NCBI RefSeq assembly: GCF_013315695.1
Contig: NZ_CP054353.1
Length of the DNA stretch: 64,000 nt
Source: Escherichia coli
Lineage (GTDB): Bacteria > Pseudomonadota > Gammaproteobacteria > Enterobacterales > Enterobacteriaceae
Strand: one strand, 5' to 3'
Shown: positions 20,628 to 38,471 of the stretch, piece after piece
How the letters are laid out: each line of letters starts with the position of its first letter
Position numbering within the stretch: position 1 is the first letter of the stretch
Position numbers and translations under genes: made by a program
Notes under the pieces: generated by a model
Databases searched by the model: none
Told to the model about the DNA's origin: nothing
The model's input: only the letters and a program-made list of their open reading frames with translations

Positions 20628-21368
20628 TTATTGTGCTGCCGGTGTTTTAGCGGGTTGTTGATCCACAGGTTCTAACTGGAAGACCACATCGACCTGATCA
20701 TCAAACTGAATAGCGGCCTGCTCGTAAGTTTCCTGGGCGGACACCGGCGCGGCATCGGCTTTCATCATCCGCACCATTGGGCTGGGCTGATAGTTGGAAA
20801 CATGGTAGCGCACGCTATATACCGGCCCCAGTTTACGATGAAAGCCGTTCGCCAGTTCCTGCGCCTGATGAATCGCGTTATCAATCGCTGCCTTACGCGC
20901 TTTGTCTTTATAGGCATCCGGCTGCGCCACGCCCAGCGACACAGAACGAATTTCGTTAAGACCCGCCTTCAGCGCGCCATCCAGCAAGGAATTCAGTTTG
21001 TCTAACTGACGGAGCGTGACTTCCACCGTTCTCACAGCACGGTAGCCTTTCAGGATACTTTTACCATCCTGATAATCATAATCTGGCTGGGTGCGTAAGT
21101 TCGCTGAGCTGATATCTTTTTTCGCGATCTGATTGAGTTCAAGGAAGGAAATGTATTGTGCGACGCGCTCATCCGCCTGTTTCTTGGCAGTAGCGGCATC
21201 CTTCGCGGCCACGTTGACTTCAATCGCAAGAGTGGCAATGTCTGGCACCGCATCCACGCTTGCCGTACCGGAGGTGACAATATGCGGTCCATCCGGCAAT
21301 TCGTTAGCCTGCGCTGCCATCCCGCTAATACCCATTAATGCCGCCAGGGCGATAACTTTGAACTTCAC
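20628..21368 (-). CDS. yggE: Periplasmic DUF541/SIMPL-like protein YggE (246 aa)
   Basis: ORF product MKFKVIALAALMGISGMAAQANELPDGPHIVTSGTASVDAVPD... Confidence 0.93.
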   Translation of the reverse strand: MKFKVIALAALMGISGMAAQANELPDGPHIVTSGTASVDAVPDIATLAIEVNVAAKDAATAKKQADERVAQYISFLELNQIAKKDISSANLRTQPDYDYQDGKSILKGYRAVRTVEVTLRQLDKLNSLLDGALKAGLNEIRSVSLGVAQPDAYKDKARKAAIDNAIHQAQELANGFHRKLGPVYSVRYHVSNYQPSPMVRMMKADAAPVSAQETYEQAAIQFDDQVDVVFQLEPVDQQPAKTPAAQ

Positions 21369-21952
21369 GTTAGTCTCTCCGTGTTAATTGACTTGCCTAA
21401 AATTCAGGACCTCTGGAGGCAAGCTTAGCGCCTCTGTTTTATTTTTCCATCAGATAGCGCCTAACTGAACAAGGCTTGTGCATGAGCAATACCGTCTCTC
21501 GCCAGCTGCAAGGCAATAAACCACATAACACATCCCACTACCAGATTGATAATGCGTTGTGATTTTGCCGTGCGCAGGCGCGGTGCCAGCCAGGCTGCGA
21601 GAATAGCCAGACCAAAGAACCACAGGAAAGAGGCGCTAATTGTCCCGAGCGCAAACCAACGTTTTGGTTCCACATCAAGTTGCCCACCAAGGCTGCCCAG
21701 TACAACAAAAGTATCCAGGTAAACATGCGGATTCAGCCAGGTCACTGCCAGCATGGTGGCGATAATTTTCCATCTGCCTTGCTTCAGGACTTCGGCACTG
21801 GCTAACTCAATATTGCTGCTCATCGCTGTTTTAAAAGCGCCAAAACCATACCACAGCAAGAAGGCTACGCCGCCCCAGGTGACCAGCGCCAGCAACCACG
21901 GCGACTGCATCAATAACGCGCTGCCACCAAAAATCCCGGCGCAAATCAGGAC

Positions 21953-21961
21953 CAAATCGCT
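21953..21961. repeat. 9-bp target-site duplication (caaatcgct), left flank of IS1 copy 1
   Basis: Identical 9-mer at 22730-22738 immediately after the IS1 right end. Confidence 0.9.
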
Positions 21962-22016
21962 GGTGATGCTGCCAACTTACTGATTTAGTGTATGATGGTG
22001 TTTTTGAGGTGCTCCA

Positions 22017-22292
22017 GTGGCTTCTGTTTCTATCAGCTGTCCCTCCTGTTCAGCTACTGACGGGGTGGTGCGTAACGGCAAAAGCACCGCCGGACATCAG
22101 CGCTATCTCTGCTCTCACTGCCGTAAAACATGGCAACTGCAGTTCACTTACACCGCTTCTCAACCCGGTACGCACCAGAAAATCATTGATATGGCCATGA
22201 ATGGCGTTGGATGCCGGGCAACAGCCCGCATTATGGGCGTTGGCCTCAACACGATTTTACGTCACTTAAAAAACTCAGGCCGCAGTCGGTAA
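22017..22292 (+). CDS. insA: IS1 InsA (91 aa)
   Basis: GTG start; [43 protein letters not shown]... Confidence 0.95.
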
Positions 22293-22714
22293 CCTCGCGC
22301 ATACAGCCGGGCAGTGACGTCATCGTCTGCGCGGAAATGGACGAACAGTGGGGCTATGTCGGGGCTAAATCGCGCCAGCGCTGGCTGTTTTACGCGTATG
22401 ACAGGCTCCGGAAGACGGTTGTTGCGCACGTATTCGGTGAACGCACTATGGCGACGCTGGGGCGTCTTATGAGCCTGCTGTCACCCTTTGACGTGGTGAT
22501 ATGGATGACGGATGGCTGGCCGCTGTATGAATCCCGCCTGAAGGGAAAGCTGCACGTAATCAGCAAGCGATATACGCAGCGAATTGAGCGGCATAACCTG
22601 AATCTGAGGCAGCACCTGGCACGGCTGGGACGGAAGTCGCTGTCGTTCTCAAAATCGGTGGAGCTGCATGACAAAGTCATCGGGCATTATCTGAACATAA
22701 AACACTATCAATAA
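22211..22714 (+). CDS. insB: IS1 InsB reading frame (167 aa; expressed as InsAB fusion by -1 frameshift)
   Basis: Product ...[50 protein letters not shown]... Confidence 0.9.
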
Positions 22715-22729
22715 GTTGGAGTCATTACC

Positions 22730-22738
22730 CAAATCGCT
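22730..22738. repeat. 9-bp target-site duplication (caaatcgct), right flank of IS1 copy 1
   Basis: Matches 21953-21961. Confidence 0.9.
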
Positions 22739-22975
22739 GATAGCGCAAAGTAAGGCAATCATAATGTGGTACTGACGACGAATGCCCTGATTCATCACAA
22801 AAGCATTTTGTGGACCGAGCGGTAGGATCATAGCTGCGCCAAGCGCAAGACCTTGAAAGTAATAAGAAAACACGTTGGATATTCCGAATTAAGTATCTGA
22901 TGCAGAGACTATATCGCGGGATTGTTATTAGCGGAAATTGATAATATTAATTGGCAATCAGAAAAACTAATAAGA

Positions 22976-23000
22976 GAGAGGCCAGAGAGTATTATCTGGC
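22976..23000 (-). terminator. Putative terminator downstream of mscS
   Basis: Hairpin aggccagagagtattatctggcct near mscS stop, followed on the minus strand by a T-rich stretch. Confidence 0.4.
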
Positions 23001-23011
23001 CTCAGCGTTGA

Positions 23012-23872
<861 letters not shown>

Positions 23873-24010
23873 TCAATATTCCTTTTCAACTGACCCAAAA
23901 TGGAGAAATACACTCCGCCGCCTTATGACGGGCAGTCTGACAAGGGTAAACAATAAAGCATAATTTTGCCAAATAGATCACAGATTTCTCATCTGTATCA
24001 CCTTGCTTTT

Positions 24011-24040
24011 GGCGAAAAAAAGACCCGCAGAGCGGGCCTT
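24011..24040 (-). terminator. Intrinsic terminator of fbaA
   Basis: Hairpin gacccgcagagcgggcc preceded on plus strand by A7 run (U-run after hairpin on fbaA transcript). Confidence 0.55.
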
Positions 24041-24062
24041 GAGATAAGCAGAAAGGAATGGC

Positions 24063-25142
24063 TTACAGAACGTCGATCGCGTTCAGTTCCTGGAATGCTT
24101 TTTCCAGACGAGCGATCATAGAAGTCTGACCGGCACGCAGCCATACGCGCGGATCGTAGTATTTCTTGTTCGGCTGATCTTCGCCTTTCGGGTTACCCAG
24201 CTGACCCTGCAGGTAAGCTTCGTTCGCTTTGTAGTAGTTCAGAACGCCTTCCCAGGTTGCCCATTGGGTATCGGTATCGATGTTCATTTTCACTACGCCG
24301 TAGCTTACGGAGTCTTTGATTTCCTGAGCAGTAGAACCGGAACCACCGTGGAATACGAAGTTCAGGCTGTTGTGCGGCAGGTTGTGTTTCTTAGAAACAT
24401 ATTCCTGAGAATCACGCAGGATGGTCGGAGTCAGAACCACGTTACCCGGCTTGTAAACACCGTGTACGTTACCGAAGGACGCTGCGATGGTGAAACGTGG
24501 GCTGATTTTGCTCAGCTCGGTGTATGCGTAATCAACGTCTTCCGGCTGGGTGTACAGTGCAGAAGCGTCCATGTGGCTGTTGTCCACGCCGTCTTCTTCA
24601 CCACCGGTGCAACCCAGTTCGATTTCCAGAGTCATGCCGATTTTGGACATGCGCTCCAGGTATTTAGAGCAGATTTCGATGTTCTCTTGCAGAGATTCTT
24701 CAGACAGGTCGATCATGTGAGAAGAGAACAGCGGCTTGCCGGTAGCTGCGAAGTGTTTTTCACCCGCGTCCAGCAGACCGTCGATCCACGGCAGCAGTTT
24801 CTTCGCGCAGTGGTCGGTGTGCAGGATAACCGGAACACCATAATGTTCAGCCATCTGGTGAACGTGATGCGCACCAGAGATCGCGCCCAGGATAGCAGCA
24901 CCCTGCGGAACGTCAGATTTCACGCCTTTACCAGCGATAAAGGAAGCACCACCGTTGGAGAACTGAACGATAACCGGCGCTTTAACTTTAGCAGCGGTTT
25001 CCAGCACGGCGTTGATGGAGTCAGTACCGACGCAGTTTACTGCTGGCAGTGCGAAGTTGTTTTCTTTTGCTACCTGGAAAACTTTCTGTACGTCATCACC
25101 AGTGATTACGCCAGGTTTTACGAAATCAAAAATCTTAGACAT
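24063..25142 (-). CDS. fbaA: Fructose-bisphosphate aldolase class II (359 aa)
   Basis: Internal start MSKIFDFVKPGVITGDDVQKVFQVAKENNFALPAVNCVGT... Confidence 0.97.
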   Translation of the reverse strand: MSKIFDFVKPGVITGDDVQKVFQVAKENNFALPAVNCVGTDSINAVLETAAKVKAPVIVQFSNGGASFIAGKGVKSDVPQGAAILGAISGAHHVHQMAEHYGVPVILHTDHCAKKLLPWIDGLLDAGEKHFAATGKPLFSSHMIDLSEESLQENIEICSKYLERMSKIGMTLEIELGCTGGEEDGVDNSHMDASALYTQPEDVDYAYTELSKISPRFTIAASFGNVHGVYKPGNVVLTPTILRDSQEYVSKKHNLPHNSLNFVFHGGSGSTAQEIKDSVSYGVVKMNIDTDTQWATWEGVLNYYKANEAYLQGQLGNPKGEDQPNKKYYDPRVWLRAGQTSMIARLEKAFQELNAIDVL

Positions 25143-25168
25143 GTCTCTTGTCCTGTATCGTCGGGCCT

Positions 25169-25293
25169 TATACTCGTCATACTTCAAGTTGCATGTACTG
25201 CGTCTGCGTTCGCTCACCCCAGTCACTTACTTATGTAAGCTCATGGGATTCACTCTCTTGTCGCCTTCCTGCAACTCGAATTATTTAGAGTAT
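25169..25293. repeat. ERIC/IRU intergenic repeat, copy 2 (inverted relative to copy 1)
   Basis: cgctcaccccagtcacttacttatgtaagctcatgggattcac core; reverse complement aligns with 9516-9641 with a handful of mismatches. Confidence 0.75.
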
Positions 25294-25356
25294 GAAAAAG
25301 TGCGTGCTTTAAAAGCGCGCTGCAACAAGGGCAGGTTTCCCTGCCCTGTGATTTTT

Positions 25357-26520
25357 TTACTTCTTAGCGCGCTCTTCGAGCATCGCTACTGCAGGCAGTA
25401 CTTTACCTTCCACGAATTCGAGGAATGCACCGCCGCCAGTGGAGATGTAGGAGATTTTGTCAGCAATGCCGAACAGGTCGATTGCTGCCAGAGTGTCGCC
25501 GCCGCCAGCGATGGAGAACGCTTCGCTGTCTGCGATAGCGTTAGCCACGATTTCAGTACCTTTGCGGAAGTTCGGGAATTCGAACACGCCAACCGGACCG
25601 TTCCACAGAATGGTTTTCGCATTCTTCAGGATTTCAGCCAGTTCCTGAGCGGAAGCATCACCGATATCCAGGATCTGCTCGTCAGCTTTCACATCGTTAA
25701 CAGATTTCAGGGTAGCCGGTGCAGTTTCAGAGAACTCAGTTGCTACGCGAACATCAGACGGAACCGGAATGTTGCAGGTGGTCAGCAGACGTTTTGCTTC
25801 ATCAACCAGGTCAGCTTCGTACAGGGATTTACCCACATCGTGGCCTTGTGCCGCGATAAAGGTGTTAGCGATACCACCACCCACGATCAGCTGGTCAGCG
25901 ATTTTGGACAGGGAATCCAGAACGGTCAGTTTGGTAGATACTTTAGAACCACCAACGATAGCCACCATCGGGCGAGCAGGTTCTTTCAGTGCTTTACCCA
26001 GCGCGTCCAGTTCAGCTGCCAGCAGCGGGCCTGCGCACGCAACGTCAGCGAATTTACCGATACCGTGAGTAGAAGCCTGCGCGCGGTGAGCAGTACCGAA
26101 TGCGTCCATTACGAACACGTCACACAGTGCAGCGTATTTTTTGGACAGGGTTTCGTCGTCTTTCTTCTCGCCTTTGTTGAAGCGAACGTTTTCCAGAACA
26201 ACCAGTTCACCTTCAGCAACGTCAACGCCGTCGAGGTAATCTTTAACCAGACGAACCGGGTTAGACAGTTTGTCTTTCAGGTAGTTAACAACCGGCAGCA
26301 GAGAGAATTCTTCGTTGTACTCGCCTTCGGTAGGACGACCCAGGTGGGAAGTTACCATCACTTTTGCGCCTTGTTTCAGGGCCAGTTCGATGGTCGGCAG
26401 AGAAGCACGGATACGCGCATCGCTGGTTACTTTCCCGTCTTTTACTGGTACGTTCAGATCCGCACGGATAAATACACGTTTCCCAGCAAGATCCAGATCG
26501 GTCATCTTAATTACAGACAT
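25357..26520 (-). CDS. pgk: Phosphoglycerate kinase (387 aa)
   Basis: Internal start [37 protein letters not shown]... Confidence 0.97.
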
Positions 26521-26569
26521 GGTGAATCCTCTCGTTGATTCTAAAAGTTTTGCAGACGCTGCTTGCGTC

Positions 26570-27589
26570 TTACCTGAAAGCAACAGTAGCCATAGCTAAC
26601 GTCGTGTCGAGCATTCGGTTAGCAAAGCCCCATTCGTTATCGCACCAGACCAACGTTTTGATCAGGTGTGCGCCACTGACCCGGGTTTGGGTGCCATCGA
26701 CAATGGCACTGTGCGGATCGTGGTTAAAATCTACAGAGACCAACGGCAATTCCGTATAGTCAACTATACCATGAAATGCACCTTGTGCTGCTTTTTGCAG
26801 CAACAGGTTGACTTCATTGGCTTTTACAGGTTTCTTCACCGTCACGCTTAAATCGATTGCCGTCACATTTATGGTTGGCACACGTACCGCAATCGCTTCA
26901 AAGCGATCGTTAAATTGCGGAAAAAATCGTGTGATACCGGCGGCCAGTTTAGTATCGACCGGAATGATCGACTGGCTGGCTGCCCGGGTGCGACGCAGGT
27001 CAGGATGGTATGCATCAATAACCTGTTGATCGTGCATGGCGGAGTGAATTGTGGTCACAGTGCCAGACTCAATACCGTACGCATCATCTAACAATTTGAT
27101 GACGGGAATTATGCAATTCGTGGTACAGGAAGCGTTAGAAACGATGCGGTGTTCCGCACGAAGTTGATCCTGATTGACGCCGTAAACAACGGTCGCGTCG
27201 AGATCGTTACTGCCAGGATGTGAAAAGAGCACTTTTTTGGCCCCGGCGGCAATATGCGCTTCGCCATGCTCGCGGGAGCCATATACGCCGGTGCAGTCGA
27301 GGACTACATCAACGCCAAGTTCACGCCAGGGGAGCGATTGTAGTGAACGTTCATGCAATACACGGATGGCGTCATCACCAACAAAAAGTTGATCGCGTTC
27401 CTGTCGTACTTCCCATGCAAAACGGCCATGGCTGGTGTCATATTTCAACAAATGCGCCATGCCCGCAGCATCCGCCAGTTCGTTGATTGCCACCACGGTA
27501 ATTTCCGCCCGGCGTCCGGATTCATACAAAGCACGAACCACATTACGCCCGATGCGACCGAAGCCATTTATCGCTACGCGTACGGTCAT
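26570..27589 (-). CDS. epd: D-erythrose-4-phosphate dehydrogenase (339 aa)
   Basis: Internal start [43 protein letters not shown]... Confidence 0.95.
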
Positions 27590-27816
27590 AGATCTCCTGC
27601 AAGGTTTTCCCTGAGCAAATTTGCCAGACAGAGTAATCCAGCAAATCGTCCGGGGAAACCTTACCTGTCGCAAACTGCGACTGATTGGTTAATTGTCGAA
27701 CATTTAATCGACTGAAACGCTTCAGCTAGGATAAGCGAAACGTGGAATAAAAGGAATGATTGTCCAGTCAAAGAAGACAATTATCTGACTTACGTCACGT
27801 TTTCAGCCCCGCCCCT

Positions 27817-27832
27817 GTGGAATTTATTCCAC
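27817..27832. promoter_or_regulatory. Near-perfect 16-bp palindrome gtggaatttattccac (candidate operator) in the epd / island intergenic region
   Basis: Inverted repeat read directly; a related half-site cgtggaataaaa occurs about 75 bp upstream. Confidence 0.3.
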
Positions 27833-27960
27833 TTTGCAGAATCACGAATAAGCGTAGCAAAATCTTTTCGTTGTGCCGTCACAAACCCTGACTTATATCA
27901 GAATATGACTGATGCAGCGTCGATATTATCCGCAATACGTCCGAGTTTCGGAGTACTCCA

Positions 27961-28392
27961 ATGATGACATTGCCCTACCCATATTCTTCCTCCGCACGTT
28001 TTTACGCGCTGCGCCTGCTCCCCGGGCAGGAAGTTCTCTCCCAATTACGCGCCTTCGCGCAGCAACAACAACTTCACGCCGCGTGGATTGCAGGTTGTAC
28101 CGGCAGTCTGACTGACGTCGCCTTACACTATGCCGGGCAAGAAAACACGACCCTACTAAGCGGTAAGTTCGAAGTCATCGCATTGAACGGCACGCTGGAA
28201 CAGAGTGGTGAACATCTTCATCTCTGCGTTTCCGATCCACACGGCACGATGCTTGGCGGTCATATGATGCCCGGCTGTACCGTGCGGACCACGCTTGAAC
28301 TGGTGATCGGCTGCCTTGAGGAACTGGCGTTTAGCCGCCAGCCTTGCGCGCTTTCTGGTTACGACGAGTTGCATATTTCCCCCGTTAACTAA
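27961..28392 (+). CDS. Small DUF296 / PCC-domain-like protein (143 aa), first gene of accessory operon
   Basis: Product MMTLPYPYSSSARFYALRLLPGQEVL...HLHLCVSDPHGTMLGGHMMPGCTV...; RBS ggag 7 nt upstream; family assignment from recalled features only. Confidence 0.6.
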   Translation: MMTLPYPYSSSARFYALRLLPGQEVLSQLRAFAQQQQLHAAWIAGCTGSLTDVALHYAGQENTTLLSGKFEVIALNGTLEQSGEHLHLCVSDPHGTMLGGHMMPGCTVRTTLELVIGCLEELAFSRQPCALSGYDELHISPVN

Positions 28393-28414
28393 CTATTTTC
28401 AGAGAGGTTTTCTT

Positions 28415-28993
28415 ATGGCGCGTCGCCACTTTTCCAGTCAGGCGCTGGTGTTGATCGTTATATCTATCGCCATCAATATGATCGGCGGGCAACTGGCCAG
28501 CATGGTCAAATTACCTATATTTCTCGACTCCGTCGGCACACTTATTAGCGCAGTACTGCTTGGTCCGGTGATCGGGATGCTGACCGGCTTACTGACCAAT
28601 TTACTCTGGGGATTGCTGACCGACCCGATCGCCGCCGCATTTGCGCCCGTCGCGATGGTCATCGGCCTGGTCACCGGTTGGCTGGCGCGAGCGGGTTGGT
28701 TACGCACCCTGCCAAAAGTCGTTGTTAGCGGCGTGATTATTACGCTTGCGGTAACGGTCGTCGCTGTACCGCTGCGTACTGCGCTGTTCGGCGGTGTCAC
28801 CGGTAGCGGAGCCGATTTGTTCGTTGCCTGGATGCACTCTATGGGGCAAAACCTGGTGGAGTCGGTGGCGATTACGGTGATAGGCGCGAACCTGGTCGAT
28901 AAAATTCTCACGGCGGTGATTGTCTGGCTTTTACTGCGCCAGTTGCCGATTCGCACCACACGACATTTCCCGGCAATGGCTGCCGTGCGCTAA
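28415..28993 (+). CDS. ECF-type transporter substrate-capture (S) component, small multi-helix membrane protein (192 aa)
   Basis: Highly hydrophobic product MARRHFSSQALVLIVISIAINMIGGQLASMVKLPIFLDSVGTLISAVLLGP...; stop directly abuts the T-component start. Confidence 0.6.
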   Translation: MARRHFSSQALVLIVISIAINMIGGQLASMVKLPIFLDSVGTLISAVLLGPVIGMLTGLLTNLLWGLLTDPIAAAFAPVAMVIGLVTGWLARAGWLRTLPKVVVSGVIITLAVTVVAVPLRTALFGGVTGSGADLFVAWMHSMGQNLVESVAITVIGANLVDKILTAVIVWLLLRQLPIRTTRHFPAMAAVR

Positions 28994-29701
28994 ATGCATC
29001 CGTTTACATCCTTAACGCTGTGGACGCTGGCGGCCTGCACCACGCTTATCCTGCCCACACAGACAATACTGCCAGTCTATAGCGCGGCGACCTTTTTCTG
29101 CCTTATTGCGCTGAAGGCCACGCGGCGGCGGGCAAAATATGTTGTCTGGCTGATGTTCTCGCTGGGGGCTGGACTGTGGCTGGTACACGGTGGCTGGCTG
29201 ACAGAATGGCTAAGCGGCACGCCACGCTCGCCAGAACGGTGGACGCATGCTATTACGCTCTGGTTGCGGATTCTGGCGATTGTTTCAACCTCGCAGTTGT
29301 GGATGCAATTCGTCCCCGTGCAACGTTTTATCCGCGCTTTGTTTGCTTCTCGCCTGCCGCCGGGCGTCGCTTATCTGTTCGCCGGGCCGTTGTTGGTCGT
29401 TGAGCAGTTAAAACGGCAATTAGCGATTATTCATGAAGCGCAGCGCGCCCGCGGCGTACCGCTGGATGAGGGCTGGTATCAGCGTTTACGTGCGATGCCC
29501 GCGCTAATTATTCCGCTAACACACAATGCGCTAAACGATCTGGCTATCCGTGGTGCGGCGTTGGACATGCGGGCATTTCGGATCCACAACCGGCGCACTA
29601 CGTTATGGGCACCGCCTGACAGTAACCTGGAAAAAGTGGCACGTTACGCCATGATCTTGCTGATGCTGGCAGAATTCGGAGCGTGGATATGGTTACGTTA
29701 G
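28994..29701 (+). CDS. ECF transporter transmembrane (T) component, EcfT/CbiQ-like (235 aa)
   Basis: Membrane protein with Arg-containing coupling motifs (EAQRARGV, AIRGAALDMRAF); start codon immediately follows the upstream TAA. Confidence 0.65.
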   Translation: MHPFTSLTLWTLAACTTLILPTQTILPVYSAATFFCLIALKATRRRAKYVVWLMFSLGAGLWLVHGGWLTEWLSGTPRSPERWTHAITLWLRILAIVSTSQLWMQFVPVQRFIRALFASRLPPGVAYLFAGPLLVVEQLKRQLAIIHEAQRARGVPLDEGWYQRLRAMPALIIPLTHNALNDLAIRGAALDMRAFRIHNRRTTLWAPPDSNLEKVARYAMILLMLAEFGAWIWLR

Positions 29702-30366
29702 AACAGTTTAGCTATTGCCCGACACACTCAACGCATCCTCCGTTCTGTTATGACTTTCACTATGTCAAACCGGGGATAGTCGCCATCTTTGGTGACAACG
29801 GCAGTGGCAAAAGTACGCTGGCGCAACTGATGGCAGGCTGGTATCCGGACTTTCTGCCAGGAGAGATAACCGGCACGGGGACGCTTCTCGGTACGCCCAT
29901 TGGGCATATCCCGCTTAATGAACAATCCGCCACCATCCAGCTCGTTCAGCAATCGCCCTATTTGCAGCTCTCCGGCTGTACCTTTAGCGTGGAAGAAGAA
30001 GTTGCCTTTGGGCCAGAAAATCTGTGTCTTGCTGAAGAGGAGATTATGGCGCGGATTGATGCCGCCCTGACTCTGACCGAGTGCCAGCCGTTGCGCCATC
30101 GTCACCCGGCAACACTCTCCGGTGGAGAGACACAGCGTGTGGTCATCGCCTGCGCCATCGCGATGCAGCCAAAGCTCTTAATTCTTGATGAAGCCTTTAG
30201 CCGCCTGACGCCGCAGGCCTGCGAAATGCTGTTGCAGCGCTTACAACACTGGGCGCTTGAACGTGGTTCGCTGATTATTCTTTTTGAACGTCATCGTACA
30301 CCTTTCCTGAACTACTGCCAGCAAGCGTGGCAATTGCAAAACGGAGCGCTCCAGCCACTATGTTAA
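29683..30366 (+). CDS. ABC ATPase, EcfA-like (227 aa)
   Basis: Walker A GDNGSGKST, signature LSGGETQRV, Walker B LLILDEA. Confidence 0.85.
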   Translation: MDMVTLEQFSYCPTHSTHPPFCYDFHYVKPGIVAIFGDNGSGKSTLAQLMAGWYPDFLPGEITGTGTLLGTPIGHIPLNEQSATIQLVQQSPYLQLSGCTFSVEEEVAFGPENLCLAEEEIMARIDAALTLTECQPLRHRHPATLSGGETQRVVIACAIAMQPKLLILDEAFSRLTPQACEMLLQRLQHWALERGSLIILFERHRTPFLNYCQQAWQLQNGALQPLC

Positions 30367-31037
30367 CGTTAAATCAGATAACTTATCGCTGGCCTGACGC
30401 GGCAACGGATTGTCTTTGCGACATTTCTCTGCAACTCAAACAAGGTGAATGGTTGGCGCTGACCGGCGACAATGGCGCGGGAAAATCGACGCTGTTACGA
30501 GTAATGGCAGGTCTTCTTACGCCCACAGCCGGTACGGTTATGCTGCAACAACAGGCGATGAAAAACCTGAAAAACCGCCAGCGCGCGGCAAAGATTGGCG
30601 TACTGTTTCAGGAAGCGGAAAACCAGCTTTTTCACAGCACCGTCGCTGACGAGATCGCATTTGGTTTGAAACTGCAAAAATGCCCGGCGGATGAAATCAC
30701 TCAACGTACCAATGCTGCCCTGCAATGCTGTCAGTTAGCAGACACTGCCAGCGCGCATCCGCTGGATCTGCATAGTGCGCAGCGACGGATGGTCGCCGTC
30801 GCCTGCCTGGAAGCACTCTCTCCGCCGCTATTGCTGCTGGACGAGCCGAGTCGGGATTTTGACGAAAATTGGATGAGCGTGTTTGAAAGTTGGCTGGAAA
30901 AGTGCCGCCAGCGAGGCACGAGCGTCGTAGCAATCAGTCATGACGCCGCATTTACCCGGCGTCATTTCTCTCGTGTGGTGCGACTGGAAGATGGTGTAAT
31001 CAGGAACGTTAATCCATCAGACGATATTCACCCGTAG
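30360..31037 (+). CDS. Second ABC ATPase, EcfA-prime-like, with degenerate signature motif (225 aa)
   Basis: Walker A GDNGAGKST, Walker B LLLLDEP, H-loop SHD; LSGGQ replaced by LHSAQ; start overlaps upstream stop as ATGTTAA. Confidence 0.8.
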   Translation: MLTLNQITYRWPDAATDCLCDISLQLKQGEWLALTGDNGAGKSTLLRVMAGLLTPTAGTVMLQQQAMKNLKNRQRAAKIGVLFQEAENQLFHSTVADEIAFGLKLQKCPADEITQRTNAALQCCQLADTASAHPLDLHSAQRRMVAVACLEALSPPLLLLDEPSRDFDENWMSVFESWLEKCRQRGTSVVAISHDAAFTRRHFSRVVRLEDGVIRNVNPSDDIHP

Positions 31038-31722
31038 CGGTCATCATTAAGGTCAAATTTGCAGGCAGACTCTCTTCCAGCACCCGGCGAACATTCGGCC
31101 CGTCGGTACGGTCATAAAAGGCTTCTGCGTCTGCCAGCGATAACCCTCCCGCCAGCTTGCGCCCCACCAGACGCTCCCGCAACGCAGATGCGGGAGCTTT
31201 GATAAAGATCGAGAAATCACAAAATTGCGCAAGCTGGCGCCACTTCTCGTCGTCCAGCAACAACCAGTTTCCTTCGACGATGACGAGTGGTGCGGTAACG
31301 TGCAACGCATCTTCAACAGGATCATGCTTTTGTCGATCGTACTGCGGCCACGTACAATCCCCTTCCACCACCTGGCGCAGATTTTCCGCCAGTTTCGCAA
31401 CGTCAAATGTCTCTGGTGCGCCTTTGAAGGGGCGCAATTGATGCGCGTCCAGCCAGCTATTGTAATGGTGAAAACCATCCATCGGGAGCGTCTGAATAGC
31501 GGGCAGCTCCGGGTCTTGTTGCGCGAGATATTCCCAGAAGGTGGTTAGGGTAGATTTACCCGTCCCCGGCGGAGCGCAAAGAAAAACCACCGTACGCCGC
31601 TGCGGATTTACCGTCTGTAAGGCCGCCAGCATACGCAGCAACGGTTTATGCACGCGTTCTATCTCTTCATCATGGTACTGTGCCTGTATCTTCAGCCCAT
31701 TCACCGTTAATTCAATTTTCAC
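31009..31722 (-). CDS. yggC: P-loop nucleoside/nucleotide kinase family protein YggC (237 aa)
   Basis: Product with P-loop CAPPGTGKSTL; position between epd and yggD. Confidence 0.9.
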   Translation of the reverse strand: MKIELTVNGLKIQAQYHDEEIERVHKPLLRMLAALQTVNPQRRTVVFLCAPPGTGKSTLTTFWEYLAQQDPELPAIQTLPMDGFHHYNSWLDAHQLRPFKGAPETFDVAKLAENLRQVVEGDCTWPQYDRQKHDPVEDALHVTAPLVIVEGNWLLLDDEKWRQLAQFCDFSIFIKAPASALRERLVGRKLAGGLSLADAEAFYDRTDGPNVRRVLEESLPANLTLMMTATGEYRLMD

Positions 31723-32228
31723 GGCGTTAATTCCTTTAAGGTGGTCGTTACTGCCAGCGTCAGCGCCGTTTTGACCATCCCGCTAAAACGCGCCTCTGAC
31801 CAGACGGCGAAATCGGCGAACTTCATCGCTTTCAACGCGTCATAGAGCGTCGCATTGCGGGTTATGCTATTGACGTTGCTGATAAAATCCCAGGTCATAT
31901 CATCAGCAAATCCGGGCGTTTCATCCTGTTCGTTCAGGTAATGCCAGAACTGGGAAAAATGCGTGATATCGGCGTACAGCCATTTATCCATTTTCCCCAG
32001 CGCATAAATCAAACGCAGTGCAACATCAATATCGTCAAGCGGGCCGCTTTGGGCGAGTAACGGCTTCACTGCATATTCGACGATCTCTTCATCGTTATCG
32101 ACAAACAGCGACGGCAGAAACTGGCGTATCCCCTGGAGCAAAATAGAATGCGCAGTATTCATAAATGAAAATAAATTGTCCTGTGCATCCAGTTGCTCAA
32201 GCACATCATCTTCTGTCAGCGTCGCCAT
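31719..32228 (-). CDS. yggD: MtlR/FumE-family protein YggD (169 aa)
   Basis: ORF product MATLTEDDVLEQLDAQDNLFSFMNTAHSILLQGIRQF... Confidence 0.9.
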   Translation of the reverse strand: MATLTEDDVLEQLDAQDNLFSFMNTAHSILLQGIRQFLPSLFVDNDEEIVEYAVKPLLAQSGPLDDIDVALRLIYALGKMDKWLYADITHFSQFWHYLNEQDETPGFADDMTWDFISNVNSITRNATLYDALKAMKFADFAVWSEARFSGMVKTALTLAVTTTLKELTP

Positions 32229-32249
32229 TGGTCTTCCGATAGATCACCA

Positions 32250-33215
32250 TCAATGCAGGGAGTCTATTATATTACACGTTTGGTCCGCGCCGCCGATCAG
32301 TAATGTCTGCGTCCGCACCCCATTCGCCGTCTGTTGGATACCGTTCACCAACTCGCCGCCCGTCACGCCCGTAGCGCTAAAGAGGATATCGTTCCCCCTC
32401 ACCAGTTCATCGAGCGAGTACACACGGTTAACGTCAACGCCCATTGCCTTACAACGCTTGCGCTCCTGCTCTGCAATCTGCCGATTTTCCGTGTAATCCC
32501 CTTTAGCCTGACAAAAGTCAATCAGCTGGGCCTGCATATCCCCGCCTAATGCTTTAACGGCACAGGCAGAAATCACGCCTTCTGGCGCACCGCCGATGGT
32601 GTACATCACATCGTAAGGATTATCCTGCCAGCAGGTCAGCACGCTGGCGGCGACATCGCCATCCGGCAGAGCGAAAACCTTCACGCCCAGCTGTGTTGCT
32701 TCTTCAATCGCGGCACTCAGGCGCGGTTTATCCAGCGTAACCATGCGCAGCTTGTCCAGCGGTTTGCCTAACGCTTTCGCCACGTTGCGCAGGTTGTCCA
32801 CCAGGGGCAAAGACAGATCAATCGCGCCCGCCGCCAGCCGATTAACAACCAGTTTTTTCATATACATATCGGGAGCGTGTAGCAGGCTGCCTCGTGGGGC
32901 GAAGGCCATGACTGCCAGCGCATTGCTCTGTCCCATCGCCACCATCCGCGTACCTTCAATGGGATCAACCGCGATATCGACTTCTGGCCCATCGCCTTTG
33001 CCCACCTCTTCGCCAATCCACAGCATCGGCGCATGGTCAATCTCTCCCTCGCCGATAACCACTCGCCCACGAAAAGCGACGTCGTTTAATGCCTGGCGCA
33101 TCGCGGTGACCGCCAGGCCATCAATTTTATTTTTGTCGCCACATCCGATTTGCGGCCAGGCAGCCAACGCTGCCTGTTCCGTAACGCGAAATAATGGCCA
33201 CGCCAGGGACATCAT
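32250..33215 (-). CDS. yggF: Fructose-1,6-bisphosphatase class II, GlpX paralogue (321 aa)
   Basis: ORF product MMSLAWPLFRVTEQAALAAWPQIGCGDKNKIDGLAVTAMRQAL... Confidence 0.9.
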   Translation of the reverse strand: MMSLAWPLFRVTEQAALAAWPQIGCGDKNKIDGLAVTAMRQALNDVAFRGRVVIGEGEIDHAPMLWIGEEVGKGDGPEVDIAVDPIEGTRMVAMGQSNALAVMAFAPRGSLLHAPDMYMKKLVVNRLAAGAIDLSLPLVDNLRNVAKALGKPLDKLRMVTLDKPRLSAAIEEATQLGVKVFALPDGDVAASVLTCWQDNPYDVMYTIGGAPEGVISACAVKALGGDMQAQLIDFCQAKGDYTENRQIAEQERKRCKAMGVDVNRVYSLDELVRGNDILFSATGVTGGELVNGIQQTANGVRTQTLLIGGADQTCNIIDSLH

Positions 33216-34489
33216 TGCGCGGCCTCCCCGATATCAACGCCAAATTGCGCCAGCAGATATTTCTCGGCCTGCTCATTCCAGATGCCGTGCGTTTCCTCAA
33301 CCAGCCGCGCCAACTCTTTAAACAGCGGATCGGTTTTGCCTTTTTCGGCAAAATCGGCAATGGCAGTGAGCGGCATGGTCACGCCGTTATAAATGAGTTT
33401 TTTACCGCCTGGGATATCCGGCAGATTGAGCACGGTTTCTGGCACCGCATCAAGGCCACCAATATGGGTCACCATAAACGACGGCTGTAACTGTCCCGTG
33501 GCGCTAAGGGTAATCGCCTCTTTCATGTCGTCCGTTGAACCGCCGGATGTACCGACGACGTGCGTGCTGTTGTAATGGACGTTGTAGAAATTAAACGGCA
33601 CTTTGAAGTTTTTATCCGTCGGCCCGGCAAAGAAGTTCAGGCAGCCATCTTCCGCCAGTAATTCGTCAGCCATCTCAACGACAGCAGGCATCGCCGCATA
33701 AACAAAAATGTCATCGAACCCGGCATCTCCTGTCAGCGCCCGCAGCATCTGTACCGGATCGCTCATCCCTTTGGTATTCACATACACCAGCTCAATGCCT
33801 TTACTGGCCGCCAGTTCCACCGGCAGCAGCTTCTCTACCTGCGCCAGGCGTTTGTCGTCGATATCGACCACCACCACCCGCGACGGTTGTATGCCGCCGT
33901 TAATGGCGTAATCGATAGCGCCAATGCCCATTGGGCCAGCACACGCCAGCAGTGCAATATTGCCGCCAGGTTTGACGCCCATGCGATGCTCATAAACATA
34001 TTGCGTGGTGTGATAATTGGCATGATAAGCGCCAATAATGCAGCACATAGGCTCTGCCAGCGACGCCGCAGCAAAATAAGAGCCGTGATAGGGTAATACG
34101 CAGCTCAGGTTAATGGCGATCTCGGGAATAATCATATAGGTGGCGTTACCGCCAAAATATTCGTAGCTGTATCCCGCAGAATACCCGCTTGGTAGCCCCA
34201 TCGCCGGTTGCAATACAAAACGTTGGCCTTTTTTATATTTGTCGGTGAGATTTTTCCCCACTTCAACAATAATCCCGGCACATTCATGCCCGGTAATGAC
34301 CGGATGATTTTCTAAATCGTCGGGCACCCGTTTATGTTCGCTACCGAGTAACGCCGCTTTCCAGGTCGATAAACACACACTGTCAGAAATTACACTCACC
34401 AGCAGTTCATTATCGGTAATTTCTGGCAGTTCAAATTCGCGCAGACGGACATCCCGCTTGCCATAAATAGCAGCAACTTTGGTTTTCAT
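33212..34489 (-). CDS. yggP: Zn-dependent polyol/sugar-phosphate dehydrogenase YggP (425 aa)
   Basis: MDR-family product MKTKVAAIYGKRDVRLREFELPEITDNELLVSVISDSVCLSTWK... Confidence 0.9.
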   Translation of the reverse strand: MKTKVAAIYGKRDVRLREFELPEITDNELLVSVISDSVCLSTWKAALLGSEHKRVPDDLENHPVITGHECAGIIVEVGKNLTDKYKKGQRFVLQPAMGLPSGYSAGYSYEYFGGNATYMIIPEIAINLSCVLPYHGSYFAAASLAEPMCCIIGAYHANYHTTQYVYEHRMGVKPGGNIALLACAGPMGIGAIDYAINGGIQPSRVVVVDIDDKRLAQVEKLLPVELAASKGIELVYVNTKGMSDPVQMLRALTGDAGFDDIFVYAAMPAVVEMADELLAEDGCLNFFAGPTDKNFKVPFNFYNVHYNSTHVVGTSGGSTDDMKEAITLSATGQLQPSFMVTHIGGLDAVPETVLNLPDIPGGKKLIYNGVTMPLTAIADFAEKGKTDPLFKELARLVEETHGIWNEQAEKYLLAQFGVDIGEAAQ

Positions 34490-34503
34490 TTTTACCTCTG
34501 TAA

Positions 34504-35892
34504 TCAGTGTTTATGTTCGGCGGTTAATTGATTAAATAAAGTGTCGAGTTTTGGATCGCCAATATAGTTATTAATCAATATCAGTGATTTATCCGTCACA
34601 CGTTTCACGCGCCCTTCCAGACTGGCATGAGTAACGACGATATCCGCATCCGCAGGCACGTTTTCTATCGCGTAATGTTTTACTTCAATTGGCAGCCCCG
34701 CTTTTTCCAGACGTTTACGGAAGGTGGTTGCGCCCATCGCGCTGGAGCCCATCCCCGCATCGCAAACAAAGGCGATACGCTTAACCCGGCTTAACGAGAA
34801 TGCACCCTCTTGTTTCATCGCCTTAACCGCATTGGCTGACTGAGCAAACTCATCTTCGTTCTCCGTTTCCACCGTTTTTTCCATCTTCAGTATCAGCGAA
34901 GTGATAGCAAAGGACACCAGGGTACCTACCGTAACACCAGCAATTGTCGCCAGGAATGAGCCTTTCGGCGTCAGCGCCAGGTAAGCAAAGATAGACCCCG
35001 GACTTGGGCCAGCCACCAGACCACCGTCCAGTAAGTTAAACATCCAGGTGCCAGACATACCGCCCGCAATCATGGCAATAATGGTCAGCGGCTTCATCAG
35101 CACATATGGGAAATACAGTTCGTGGATCCCACCGAGGAAGTGAATAATCATCGCACCAGGTGCAGAGCGCTTACTCATCCCTTTACCAAACAGAGTGAAT
35201 GCCAGCAACAGTCCTAAGCCAGGCCCTGGATTGGATGCCACCATAAAGAAGATGGATTTGCCGTTAACTGATGCCTGTTGCATTCCCAGCGGATAATAGA
35301 CGCCCTGATCGATCGCATTATTAAGGAAAAGCACTTTCGCCGGTTCATTGATGACTGACAGCAGAGGCAGATAACCCGCATGTACCAGCGCCTCAATACA
35401 CTCTTTGACGAAAGTATTGGCAATTAACACCGCCGGGCCGATCACTTCAAAACCCAGCAGACAAAGGAGCATCCCCGCGATACCTAATGAGAAGTTATTG
35501 ATAACCATCTCAAAACCGGCAGGTATGCGTTTTTCCAGTGCCTTATCGACATATTTTATGACCAGCCCACCTAACGGTCCCATAATCATTGAACCAAGGA
35601 ACATCGGGATTTCTGCGCCGACGATTACACCAATTGACCCTATTCCGCCCATGACTGCGCCGCGTTTACCGCCGACTAAATGGCCACCGGTAGAACCAAT
35701 CATCACGGGCAATAAATAGGTAATCATCGGGCCGACAATTTTGGCGAAATGTTCGTTAGGCAGCCAACCGGTGGGAATAAATAACGCTGTAATAAAACCC
35801 CAGGCAATAAAAGCACCAATATTGGGGATGACCATTGCAGTCAAAAAGCCCCCAAAAGCCTGGACCTTTGCACGAGCAGACTTGTTTTCCAT
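34504..35892 (-). CDS. cmtA: PTS mannitol-family EIICB component (462 aa)
   Basis: ORF product MENKSARAKVQAFGGFLTAMVIPNIGAFIAWGFITALFIPTGW... Confidence 0.95.
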   Translation of the reverse strand: MENKSARAKVQAFGGFLTAMVIPNIGAFIAWGFITALFIPTGWLPNEHFAKIVGPMITYLLPVMIGSTGGHLVGGKRGAVMGGIGSIGVIVGAEIPMFLGSMIMGPLGGLVIKYVDKALEKRIPAGFEMVINNFSLGIAGMLLCLLGFEVIGPAVLIANTFVKECIEALVHAGYLPLLSVINEPAKVLFLNNAIDQGVYYPLGMQQASVNGKSIFFMVASNPGPGLGLLLAFTLFGKGMSKRSAPGAMIIHFLGGIHELYFPYVLMKPLTIIAMIAGGMSGTWMFNLLDGGLVAGPSPGSIFAYLALTPKGSFLATIAGVTVGTLVSFAITSLILKMEKTVETENEDEFAQSANAVKAMKQEGAFSLSRVKRIAFVCDAGMGSSAMGATTFRKRLEKAGLPIEVKHYAIENVPADADIVVTHASLEGRVKRVTDKSLILINNYIGDPKLDTLFNQLTAEHKH

Positions 35893-36243
35893 AATATTAT
35901 CCTGTAGAGGAGAGAGTAATTATCCGCGGCTGATAATGTCCGCTAATTGTTTTTCTGATGATGCTGTTAAGAGTTGTTCGAGTATTTCTTCTTCGCACAG
36001 TAATTCACTTAACGCCTGAATAGCGCCAATGTGCGAATCGGCATCGGCAGCAGAGAGTCCGATGAGTAATTTAATTGGTTCGTCATTCCCCTGAAAATAA
36101 ACACCTTGTTCAAGTAATGTCAAAGACATCCCGGTTTTAAGCGCCCCACATTCCGGTCGCGCATGAGGCATTGCCACGCCTGGTGCGAGAATATAATAAG
36201 GGCCATTGTTAATGGTGGAATCTTTAATTGCCTGAATGTAATT

Positions 36244-36252
36244 CTCGCTGAT
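36244..36252. repeat. 9-bp target-site duplication (ctcgctgat), left flank of IS1 copy 2
   Basis: Identical 9-mer at 37021-37029. Confidence 0.9.
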
Positions 36253-36307
36253 GGTGATGCTGCCAACTTACTGATTTAGTGTATGATGGTGTTTTTGAGG
36301 TGCTCCA

Positions 36308-36583
36308 GTGGCTTCTGTTTCTATCAGCTGTCCCTCCTGTTCAGCTACTGACGGGGTGGTGCGTAACGGCAAAAGCACCGCCGGACATCAGCGCTATCTC
36401 TGCTCTCACTGCCGTAAAACATGGCAACTGCAGTTCACTTACACCGCTTCTCAACCCGGTACGCACCAGAAAATCATTGATATGGCCATGAATGGCGTTG
36501 GATGCCGGGCAACAGCCCGCATTATGGGCGTTGGCCTCAACACGATTTTACGTCACTTAAAAAACTCAGGCCGCAGTCGGTAA
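36308..36583 (+). CDS. insA: IS1 InsA (91 aa)
   Basis: Translation identical to the 22017-22292 product. Confidence 0.95.
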
Positions 36584-37005
36584 CCTCGCGCATACAGCCG
36601 GGCAGTGACGTCATCGTCTGCGCGGAAATGGACGAACAGTGGGGCTATGTCGGGGCTAAATCGCGCCAGCGCTGGCTGTTTTACGCGTATGACAGGCTCC
36701 GGAAGACGGTTGTTGCGCACGTATTCGGTGAACGCACTATGGCGACGCTGGGGCGTCTTATGAGCCTGCTGTCACCCTTTGACGTGGTGATATGGATGAC
36801 GGATGGCTGGCCGCTGTATGAATCCCGCCTGAAGGGAAAGCTGCACGTAATCAGCAAGCGATATACGCAGCGAATTGAGCGGCATAACCTGAATCTGAGG
36901 CAGCACCTGGCACGGCTGGGACGGAAGTCGCTGTCGTTCTCAAAATCGGTGGAGCTGCATGACAAAGTCATCGGGCATTATCTGAACATAAAACACTATC
37001 AATAA
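36502..37005 (+). CDS. insB: IS1 InsB reading frame (167 aa)
   Basis: Translation identical to the 22211-22714 product. Confidence 0.9.
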
Positions 37006-37020
37006 GTTGGAGTCATTACC

Positions 37021-37029
37021 CTCGCTGAT
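37021..37029. repeat. 9-bp target-site duplication (ctcgctgat), right flank of IS1 copy 2
   Basis: Matches 36244-36252. Confidence 0.9.
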
Positions 37030-37140
37030 ATAGTTTTTATCCAGCAATGATACCATCGAGAAATCGATAGCTTCCTGCCAATCTTTTGCTGAATGTATAA
37101 CTGAGATTGATGATTTTGGAAAATAATCACTAAGCCGCAT

Positions 37141-37517
37141 AAATTATCCTTATTTTATTTTTAGGGTACAGTCCGGCGGTAAAAATAAAATACTCGTGCG
37201 GTTTAATGAAAGCAATTGGGTACGCGAGAAGAAAAACCCCATGAACAAAAATAATAAAACCTTAAATAACAACAACATGAAATTGATATTTTTAAAGTCA
37301 ACTTTGTATTTGTTACGTTTATCACAAAATCAACATTTTGATTGTTGTTGTATTTGTGATGCATATCGCCATTTATTTATTGAATGTCCGAAAACATACT
37401 TTTTTAAAGCAATGTTTTTTCGCTATACCCCTTTATAGATTCTGAATTCTCACCTGTCGGCTGTTTTCTCCTCATCTCATGTGACATATTCCCACACTTT
37501 ACTCAAGGAAGATTGTC
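37141..37517. other. Strongly AT-rich non-coding leader upstream of the SPFH gene
   Basis: Visibly A/T-dominated sequence with runs such as aaaaataaaatac and ataataaaaccttaaataacaacaac; contrasts with flanking core DNA. Confidence 0.6.
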
Positions 37518-38426
37518 ATGAAAGCACCTGTTTCATTAACCTCATTTCGCCCACAAAAATCTCTTGCTATCGCCATTGGCGTGCTTGCCGTGGTTGTGCT
37601 GCCATTTCTCTCGTATTACACCGTTAATGAAGGTGAACGCGGCATTTTGCTGCGCTACGGAAAAATCGTAAAAGTTGCCGAGCCGGGTCTGGGTTTTAAG
37701 ATCCCGTTTATGGAAAGCGTGGAGAAAATTTCCACGCGTAATCAGGCTGTGGTCTATCAGGGATTACAGGCCTACAGCCGCGACCAGCAACCGGCACAAA
37801 TGACAGTATCAGTCAGCTTCCACATTAAACCTTCAGAAGCAGGCGCGGTTTATACCACCTACAACACCATTGAAGCATTAAAAGATCGTCTGATTGTCCG
37901 TCAGTTGCCAACTCAACTGGAGAACGTTTTCGGCCAATATACCGCCATCAGCGCTGTACAGGATCGTACAAAACTGGTTCAGGATCTGCAAAATGCCATG
38001 CGCAAAGCCGTTGTTGGGCCAGTGGTAATTGACGGGGTCCAGATTGAAAATATTGATTTTTCTGACGCTTATGAAAAGTCGATTGAAGACCGAATGAAAG
38101 CAGAAGTCGCCATTGCCACGCGTAAGCAAAATCTGGAAACAGAGAAAATCCAGGCGCAAATAGCGGTAACTCAGGCCCAGGCAGAAGCAGACAGTAAACT
38201 GGCGGCAGCTAAAGCAGAAGCGGAAACTATTCGCGTAAGAGGCGCGGCAGAGGCTGAAACTATTCGTTTAAAAAGTGCGGCTGAAGCAGAAGCGATCCGC
38301 CTGCGCGGTGAAGCTCTGCGGGATAATCCCGGACTTGTAGCCCTCACCACTGCCGAACGTTGGGACGGTAAACTGCCCGATACCATGATCCCCGGCAGCA
38401 CAGTTCCGTTTATCTCTACTAAGTAA
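37518..38426 (+). CDS. SPFH/band-7 (HflC-like) membrane protein with C-terminal Ala/Glu-rich repeat region (302 aa)
   Basis: N-terminal TM helix then YTVNEGERGILLRYGKIVKVAEPGLGFKIPFMESVEKISTRNQ, paralleling the HflC N-terminal SPFH signature. Confidence 0.8.
   Translation: MKAPVSLTSFRPQKSLAIAIGVLAVVVLPFLSYYTVNEGERGILLRYGKIVKVAEPGLGFKIPFMESVEKISTRNQAVVYQGLQAYSRDQQPAQMTVSVSFHIKPSEAGAVYTTYNTIEALKDRLIVRQLPTQLENVFGQYTAISAVQDRTKLVQDLQNAMRKAVVGPVVIDGVQIENIDFSDAYEKSIEDRMKAEVAIATRKQNLETEKIQAQIAVTQAQAEADSKLAAAKAEAETIRVRGAAEAETIRLKSAAEAEAIRLRGEALRDNPGLVALTTAERWDGKLPDTMIPGSTVPFISTK
38214..38312 (+). repeat. Three imperfect tandem 33-nt repeats inside the SPFH gene
   Basis: Units encode AEAETIRVRGA / AEAETIRLKSA / AEAEAIRLRGE. 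Confidence 0.7.
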
Positions 38427-38451: not shown

Positions 38452-38471
38452 CTCACAAAGCATCTTACCGA

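Follow-up and report, generated by a model that had tools for sequence, protein, structure and literature searches.

O-island 119 of Escherichia coli is probably an old enterobacterial cassette in which a PPC protein partners an ECF-type importer

In a 64-kb stretch of Escherichia coli DNA (contig NZ_CP054353.1; hereafter, the window), five plus-strand genes are located between epd and yggC. They encode a PPC (also known as PCC or DUF296) protein and the components of a transporter of the energy-coupling factor (ECF) type, namely, a substrate-capture component (S), a transmembrane component (T) and two ABC ATPases (A1 and A2). We analysed this five-gene cassette along with its relatives, which were scanned in one genome per species; a search with a nine-sequence alignment retrieved 80 loci holding S homologues of 40–98% identity. 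The genes of the locus and its flanks are as follows:

26570–27589, minus strand: epd, the left flank, from the list of open reading frames (ORFs)
27961–28392, plus strand: PPC/PCC gene (lmiA), 143 aa; Pfam PCC (PF03479), E = 3.9e-27
28415–28993, plus strand: ECF S (substrate-capture) component, 192 aa from an internal ATG; Pfam ECF_trnsprt (PF12822), E = 1.7e-7
28994–29701, plus strand: ECF T (EcfT/CbiQ-like) transmembrane component, as named by RefSeq, 235 aa; Pfam CbiQ (PF02361), E = 1.3e-4
29689–30366, plus strand: ABC ATPase A1, 225 aa (227 aa with the start at 29683); best NCBIfam match ECF_ATPase_1
30360–31037, plus strand: ABC ATPase A2, 225 aa from the ATG at 30360; best NCBIfam match ECF_ATPase_2
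31009–31722, minus strand: yggC, the right flank, convergent to A2

The cassette is compact. The first-pass annotation of the window, made from the sequence alone, had described its genes as tightly coupled, and both junctions on which it relied (TAAATG at 28991–28996 and ATGTTAA at 30360–30366) are exact on direct reading; in addition, T and A1 share 13 nt, and A2 shares 29 nt with the convergent yggC. The gene content and coordinates given there for the five genes between epd and yggC agree with the ORF list. So does the Pfam evidence (PF03479) with the description of the first product as DUF296/PCC-like, and the assignment of the other four to S, T, A and A′ components is supported by the Pfam matches, the best NCBIfam matches and the RefSeq labels. 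The RefSeq annotation of an identical locus makes the same assignments and names S and T as ECF components. The E. coli loci examined all have the five ORFs intact. In comparisons with Citrobacter, Klebsiella and Atlantibacter, dN/dS is 0.04–0.2 for all five genes, similar to the flanking housekeeping genes, these values being approximate because dS is saturated. Judging by these sequence comparisons, the five ORFs can be taken as real genes rather than chance ORFs.

The S protein has the S-component fold. Its best NCBIfam match, the CD3073 family (NF045596; E = 6e-39), reaches 133.4 bits, under the 180-bit cut-off, so that the protein is not a member of this family, a true member of which (P0173) scores 186.6 bits. 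The motifs KLPxYLDSIGT, GP, FGGxTGSG and DK are nevertheless common to the two, and the loci differ in the upstream partner of S, which is the PPC protein here and a TudS-related protein (NF045597) in the CD3073 loci. The S component lacks conserved His, Cys or Met residues, which argues against a soft-metal cargo, and the presence of a 34%-identical homologue beside thiamine genes implies that specificity varies within the wider family. As the first-pass annotation had cautioned, the S component does not reveal the substrate. Homologues elsewhere are fused to T, tandemly duplicated or fused to histidine kinases; we considered these domain fusions as a clue to function, but they were uninformative about the substrate. 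Two such proteins, P0238 (935 aa) and P0267 (569 aa), combine S-component-like domains with histidine kinase modules, and P0238 also contains receiver modules; in both, the ECF S fold seems to serve as a sensor domain in the membrane.

The T protein is a T component by its CbiQ match, which spans residues 10–197 of 235. An AQxARG coupling motif, AQRARG, is shared by 90% or more of 72 homologues, and the second motif, ALxxRxF, reads ALDMRAF in E. coli, keeping the Arg and having Ala for Gly. The best NCBIfam matches of A1 and A2 are ECF_ATPase_1, ECF_ATPase_2 and cbiO, all well under the respective cut-offs. Across 62 aligned pairs of the two ATPases, A1 retains intact Walker A, Q-loop, LSGGE and Walker B motifs, with Glu replacing the His of the H-loop, and A2 retains Walker A, Walker B and the SHD H-loop, with hPlDL..qRR replacing the LSGGQ signature; in E. 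coli A2, this degenerate signature is HPLDLHSAQRR. In an ABC dimer, each ATP site is formed by the Walker motifs and H-loop of one subunit and the signature of the other. The H-loop defect of A1 and the signature defect of A2 thus fall in the same composite site, leaving one degenerate site and one consensus site, the latter made of the A2 P-loop and the A1 signature. The coherence of this asymmetry argues for a working heterodimer. The ATPases are about 225 aa long in Enterobacteriaceae versus about 270–300 aa in other clades.

No gene for a solute-binding protein was found in the cassette or in the 80 related loci. In this respect the transporter resembles the group I ECF systems BioMNY, CbiMNQO, NikMNQO and YkoEDC, which likewise encode S, T and ATPase in one operon, lack a solute-binding protein and have the S-component fold for S and the CbiQ fold for T. 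Unlike those systems, the cassette has its ATPases encoded separately in two genes, with one ATP site that is invariably degenerate and products that are short in Enterobacteriaceae, and it includes an obligatorily linked cytoplasmic PPC gene, which to our knowledge is not among the accessory components of ECF systems. We regard the cassette as an uncharacterised variant of the dedicated ECF importers.

The linkage between PPC and ECF genes extends over several phyla. The order PPC-S-T-A-A′ is found in about 70 of the 80 loci, with the PPC gene directly 5′ of S and frequent overlaps, and spans Enterobacterales, Aeromonas, alpha- and beta-proteobacteria, Desulfobulbaceae, Synergistaceae, in whose loci transporter genes are fused, and Chloroflexi. 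Relatives of the cassette occur in Salmonella, Citrobacter, Klebsiella, Proteus and Providencia. Clustering of all neighbouring ORFs in the 80 loci revealed no further conserved neighbours common to different clades; outside the five genes, synteny is clade-specific throughout. The PPC gene is missing mainly from the loci of the most distant S homologues. In PPC-less loci L074, L077, L084–L086 and L090, the slot upstream of S is occupied by a nucleoside hydrolase gene and, in L089, a true CD3073-family locus, by a gene for a 'CD3072 family TudS-related putative desulfidase'. By analogy, PPC would take the position where relatives put a cargo-processing enzyme.

The PPC protein matches the PF03479 model, has the PPC fold and is 79% identical to the Salmonella protein of known structure 2HX0. 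Residues invariant in 34 diverse orthologues include, among others, R18, E71, H85, H87, D92, H101, T110, T111, E113, R126 and E136. The family is acidic, with a median pI of 5.6 and a net charge of −5, and the E. coli protein contains 6 basic residues. Among the best 120 profile matches, nearly all homologues are stand-alone proteins of about 141 aa. The structures 2HX0 and 2NMU (Salmonella), 2P6Y (VCA0587) and 2DT4 (PH0802) bear only the depositor names 'putative DNA-binding protein' or 'hypothetical protein', and we found no assigned biochemical function for these four entries. The nearest non-PPC fold relatives are Zn-dependent acetolactate decarboxylases (ALDC; PDB 4BT2 and 6INB), in which Zn is held by three histidines in an H-x-H...H pattern. 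At about 12–17% identity, and given that ALDC is twice as large and has two domains, the PPC protein shows neither the two-domain organization nor the significant sequence similarity that define the ALDC family; the likeness, which is at the level of the fold, is a functional lead and not family membership. Taken together, the acidity, the fold and the His triad favour a metal-dependent enzyme or a ligand binder, but the published experiments on DNA binding, described below, are not overturned by them.

The first-pass annotation could not assign the pairing of a PCC-like protein with an ECF module to a described system; the locus has in fact been described. By orthology and synteny with z4267–z4271, it corresponds to O-island 119 (OI-119) of enterohaemorrhagic E. 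coli (EHEC) O157:H7 EDL933, a 3.12-kb island of five genes (PMC7667037). The genes, their order and the epd–yggC position are the same, and the island size and gene list match the published ones. The product of z4267 has been named LmiA, a DUF296 protein for which His85, His87 and His101 were proposed as a zinc site; z4268 and z4269 were called hypothetical, and z4270 and z4271 ABC ATP-binding proteins (PMC7667037). In the same study, lmiA was activated by PhoP at low Mg, LmiA regulated the enterocyte effacement locus (LEE), and its binding to the LEE1 promoter was reported from electrophoretic mobility shift assays (EMSA), chromatin immunoprecipitation with quantitative PCR (ChIP-qPCR) and DNase I footprinting (PMC7667037). 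A second paper reported direct activation of gadA and gadBC by LmiA (PMC11657066). Both papers treat the island as horizontally acquired and leave its four transporter genes unexplained.

When queried with the 3.6-kb segment from the 5′ end of epd to the 3′ end of yggC, an O157:H7 genome matched over its full length (100%) with 95.6% identity and is annotated with the same five genes. The window comes from another lineage and is 100% identical over the query to the blood isolate AF3; compared with the O157 copy, its PPC gene is only 91% identical at the nucleotide level, and the product carries the substitution R56H. Against the B7A and O157 copies, identity is 91% for the PPC gene and 91–94% for the T gene, versus 98–99% for the adjacent epd fragment. 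The island is unusually divergent within the species, which could be due to old alleles or recombination. The literature found contains no explanation of the OI-119 transporter or of the PPC-ECF pairing itself: searches on CD3073, yggC with ECF, STM3071, PF03479 and DUF296 with ECF returned nothing on function, and no transporter context was found in the TudS paper. Relative to this literature, the cross-phylum PPC-ECF cassette, its probable ancestral status at epd–yggC, the constant asymmetry of the ATPase pair, the enzyme-like neighbours of the PPC fold and the predicted FNR-type promoter described below are new.

At least 80% of the 3.6-kb query is present in 3319 of the 5426 complete E. 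coli genomes, and the others match only the epd end. In K-12 (TG1), epd and yggC are adjacent, as the first-pass annotation had stated, and the spacing of 284 bp is identical in two unrelated strains, that is, one common empty allele. The polymorphic segment is the following:

27811–31077, no strand assigned: OI-119 indel segment, replaced by 132 bp in K-12, a net difference of about 3.1 kb

In a blastn comparison with K-12, homology covers 27590–27810 (95.5%) and begins again at 31078, a position within the 3′ end of yggC. The final ~75 codons of this gene (31009–31250, the 3′ third) are strongly diverged from K-12. This divergence and the overlap with A2 indicate that the presence/absence polymorphism takes in part of yggC. 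The extent 27961–31037 assigned to the cassette in the first-pass annotation accordingly holds for the genes and not for the polymorphic block, which runs to about 31077. The same description called the operon accessory, which is apt within E. coli (61% of complete genomes) and not across genera: the cassette is found at the epd–yggC site in E. albertii, Citrobacter, Klebsiella michiganensis, Atlantibacter, Kluyvera, Superficieibacter, Phytobacter and Pseudescherichia, a site being counted also where the cassette adjoins only epd or yggC because the contig is cut. In Salmonella diarizonae, for instance, the locus is cut upstream and the cassette is still joined to yggC. Since the same site is occupied in eight genera of Enterobacteriaceae, K-12 appears to carry a deletion allele; the cassette most likely is ancestral to enterobacteria, and the K-12-type allele arose by deletion, rather than the island by acquisition in EHEC. 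Recent horizontal transfer was considered and rejected: the cassette is native-like in GC and GC3 (GC 54.7% versus 51.8% for the window), and its site is syntenic in other genera. We also rejected yggC as a part of the system, given that it is not linked to the cassette outside Enterobacteriaceae.

The region upstream of the PPC gene was compared in an alignment of 21 Enterobacteriaceae loci, in which three conserved blocks, a palindrome, a −10-like hexamer and an 18-nt element, stand out from otherwise diverged sequence. Together with the published elements, the following features are recognized:

27789–27807, plus strand: PhoP DNase I footprint CTTACGTCACGTTTTCAGC, published (PMC7667037), in a block common to K-12 and other genera
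27834–27871, plus strand: lmiA promoter, published (PMC7667037), with −35 TTGCAG at 27834–27839 and −10 TAGCAAAAT at 27855–27863
27888–27901, plus strand: FNR-type palindrome CTGACTTATATCAG (cTGAY-N4-RTCAg), conserved in 21 of 21 upstream regions
27924–27929, plus strand: predicted −10 hexamer TATTAT of a proximal (FNR-type) promoter, in a conserved TAT(A/G)(T/A)T block
27937–27954, plus strand: 18-nt element ACGTCCGAGTTTCGGAGT, nearly invariant across genera

FNR recognizes the consensus TTGAT-N4-ATCAA, and its class II position is −41.5. The centre of the palindrome lies 41.5 nt upstream of the predicted start in all 21 sequences; for those with TATATTATC, this value holds if TATTAT is chosen, and the scan's own pick, TATATT, gives 39.5 nt. 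The core pattern of the palindrome occurs only 6 times in the window. CRP, considered instead of FNR at this site, is less likely, as the GTGA core is absent in 19 of the 21 sequences. The 18-nt element ACGTCCGAGTTTCGGAGT is predicted to form a small hairpin (−6.5 kcal/mol), the 3′ arm of which holds the Shine-Dalgarno sequence GGAG. A riboswitch, for which the first-pass annotation had proposed scanning the leader, yielded no Rfam match at the gathering score (20000–40000) or at E ≤ 1 (27550–28050), and a scan for consensus promoters and terminators gave nothing above the shuffled background.

The published lmiA transcription start, 90 nt before the ATG, corresponds to position 27871 of the window (PMC7667037). 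Because the PhoP footprint and the mapped promoter stand upstream of the FNR-type box, the operon possibly has two promoters. The conserved box agrees with published low-oxygen induction: in O157 Sakai, ECs3799, ECs3800 and ECs3802 were up by log2 2.3–2.9 as dissolved oxygen fell and clustered with genes of the FNR regulon, namely, pflB, narK, adhE, hyp, nrdDG and nrfB (PMC2241611). The PhoP box region (27784–27803) reads TCTGA-N6-TCACG, which is CRP-site-like. This block may belong to the divergent epd promoter, which we take to be CRP-dependent. In Buttiauxella (L022 and L025), the box, the −10 hexamer and the hairpin lie about 120–180 nt upstream of the predicted PPC start, versus about 25–70 nt elsewhere, which suggests an extra leader or a mis-called PPC start.

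On balance, we consider it probable that OI-119 is an old enterobacterial cassette of a PPC protein and an ECF importer that was lost by K-12, and that PPC is the functional partner of the transporter. This interpretation starts from direct observations, namely, the gene content, the folds, the motif pattern, the cross-phylum gene order and purifying selection. The four transporter genes would constitute a dedicated, group I style ECF-type ABC importer, in which S captures a small molecule in the membrane, T serves as the scaffold, and the A1/A2 heterodimeric ATPase, with one catalytic and one degenerate ATP site, presumably drives transport in the direction of import. In the cytoplasm, PPC (LmiA), with its three-histidine metal site, would most likely bind or chemically process the imported compound; in EHEC, it is additionally reported to act at the promoters of ler and the gad genes. 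Low oxygen probably turns the operon on via the class II FNR-type promoter, beside the published PhoP/low-Mg input. A more specific version of this scheme can be put forward only tentatively: the PPC proteins of this subfamily might be Zn-dependent, ALDC-like enzymes or ligand binders, not DNA-binding proteins, that act on the cargo of a dedicated ECF importer, induced anaerobically and possessing a single catalytic ATP site; this cargo might be a gut compound that bears sulfur or selenium or resembles a nucleobase, and the effects of LmiA on LEE and gad would be secondary, through moonlighting or a metabolite.

Several observations weigh against this interpretation. T matches CbiQ weakly (E = 1.3e-4), and the ATPases score far below the family cut-offs, A1 at 120 bits versus 315 for ECF_ATPase_1 and A2 at 150 bits versus 330 for ECF_ATPase_2. 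A C-terminal extension of about 50 aa, which in known ECF ATPases helps dimerisation, is present elsewhere but lost from the ATPases of Enterobacteriaceae. The predicted FNR site lies downstream of the mapped start at 27871, and the identity of ECs3799, ECs3800 and ECs3802 with S, T and A2 is taken from numbering and annotation, not from sequence. In the PPC of this strain, R56H (codon 56, 28126–28128) replaces an Arg that six other Escherichia sequences share and that at least 90% of 34–72 orthologues retain; with a change at so nearly invariant a residue, PPC may be impaired in this lineage. Deletion of z4268–z4271 left adherence and LEE expression unchanged (PMC7667037), and the EMSA, ChIP-qPCR and footprint results assign to LmiA another role, that of a DNA-binding regulator (PMC7667037; PMC11657066).

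LmiA could indeed be primarily a transcription factor, placed first in the operon so as to regulate the transporter or sense its cargo and recruited in EHEC to ler and to gadA/gadBC, a possibility that deserves attention although we do not favour it. Besides its direct binding to the gadA and gadBC promoters (PMC11657066), the experiments at LEE1 included a 9.9-fold signal in ChIP-qPCR as well as complementation, but the footprints required 2.5–5 µM protein (PMC7667037). A UniRef name, 'putative regulator of transporter operon', points the same way. Yet the acidity of the PPC family is unusual for a DNA-binding protein, Pfam finds no DNA-binding motif beyond PCC, and in plant AHL proteins it is the AT-hook, not the PPC domain, that binds DNA. 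The nearest non-PPC folds are those of enzymes, the PPC gene is translationally coupled to S in phyla without LEE, and no operator common to different clades was seen upstream. It is very improbable that the cassette is a decaying remnant without present function in E. coli, a view that would accommodate its absence from 39% of complete genomes, the shortened ATPases, R56H in this strain, the split A1 in the E. albertii type strain and the truncated S in one Salmonella diarizonae locus, as well as the lack of a phenotype upon deletion of z4268–z4271 (PMC7667037). The five ORFs are, however, intact in all E. coli loci examined, with dN/dS of 0.04–0.2; the promoter elements are conserved, and the genes are transcriptionally regulated.

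Two further alternatives concern the cargo. According to the one, which we consider rather unlikely, the cassette serves to salvage a compound that contains sulfur or selenium, or else a modified nucleobase or nucleoside, and PPC acts on it inside the cell. A gene resembling the YedF C-terminal domain (TIGR03527, 106 bits versus a cut-off of 110) stands directly 5′ of PPC in 8 loci (7 from Chloroflexi and 1 from a beta-proteobacterium), in Morganella and Brucella gallinifaecis the cassette has a TsuA/YeeE-like gene next to it, and the sister S clade (CD3073) is found beside genes for the CD3072 TudS-related desulfidase and cysteine-desulfurase-like and Se_S_carrier proteins; other relatives lie beside nucleoside hydrolase, ribokinase-like, nucleoside-phosphorylase-like or 2-thiouracil-desulfurase-like genes. 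However, such neighbours, which were chosen after the fact, are confined to a minority of clades and are absent from all of the Enterobacteriaceae, K-12 produces selenoproteins although it lacks the island, and homologues at 35–45% identity differ in context, so that specificity need not transfer. In one Desulfobulbaceae locus, a double-cubane reductase gene is located upstream. Overall, these contexts are weak hints toward sulfur/selenium or nucleobase-like compounds as substrates. The other alternative, a metal importer for Ni, Co, Zn or Mg with PPC as a cytoplasmic metallochaperone, appears distinctly unlikely: the three-His site of PPC, co-induction with nik and hyp genes at low oxygen (PMC2241611), PhoP/low-Mg induction (PMC7667037) and CopA- and CopZ-like genes adjoining the cassette in two Synergistaceae loci speak for it, but the S component offers no conserved His, Cys or Met, and no CbiN/NikN-like gene is present in the loci examined.

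ECF transporters are rare in Enterobacteriaceae, and the OI-119 transporter is present in most pathogenic E. coli lineages. The first gene of the island is at present seen as a virulence regulator acquired by horizontal transfer. Our analysis recasts it as the constant companion, across phyla, of an ancient transporter cassette and the cassette itself as most likely ancestral at the epd–yggC site rather than acquired, a conflict with the prevailing view that is open to experiment. The PPC/DUF296 domain is the conserved core of the plant AHL regulators, and the ligand of S and the chemistry at the three-His site would give it its first prokaryotic biochemical context.

Individual relatives depart from the common arrangement. 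A1 is split in the type strain of E. albertii (L008, 11269–11952), S is truncated in one Salmonella diarizonae locus (L018, 148–723), and no PPC match was found in Citrobacter sp. R56 (L079, 9428–10579). An intact epd–yggC pair is present in Buttiauxella sp. B2 (L032), with the cassette about 4 kb away. In the surroundings of the cassette in the window, three copies of IS1 are present within about 16 kb, at about 22017–22714, at 34527–35224 and from 37085 (coordinates transferred from the identical RefSeq locus), and argO and cmtB are annotated as interrupted pseudogenes.

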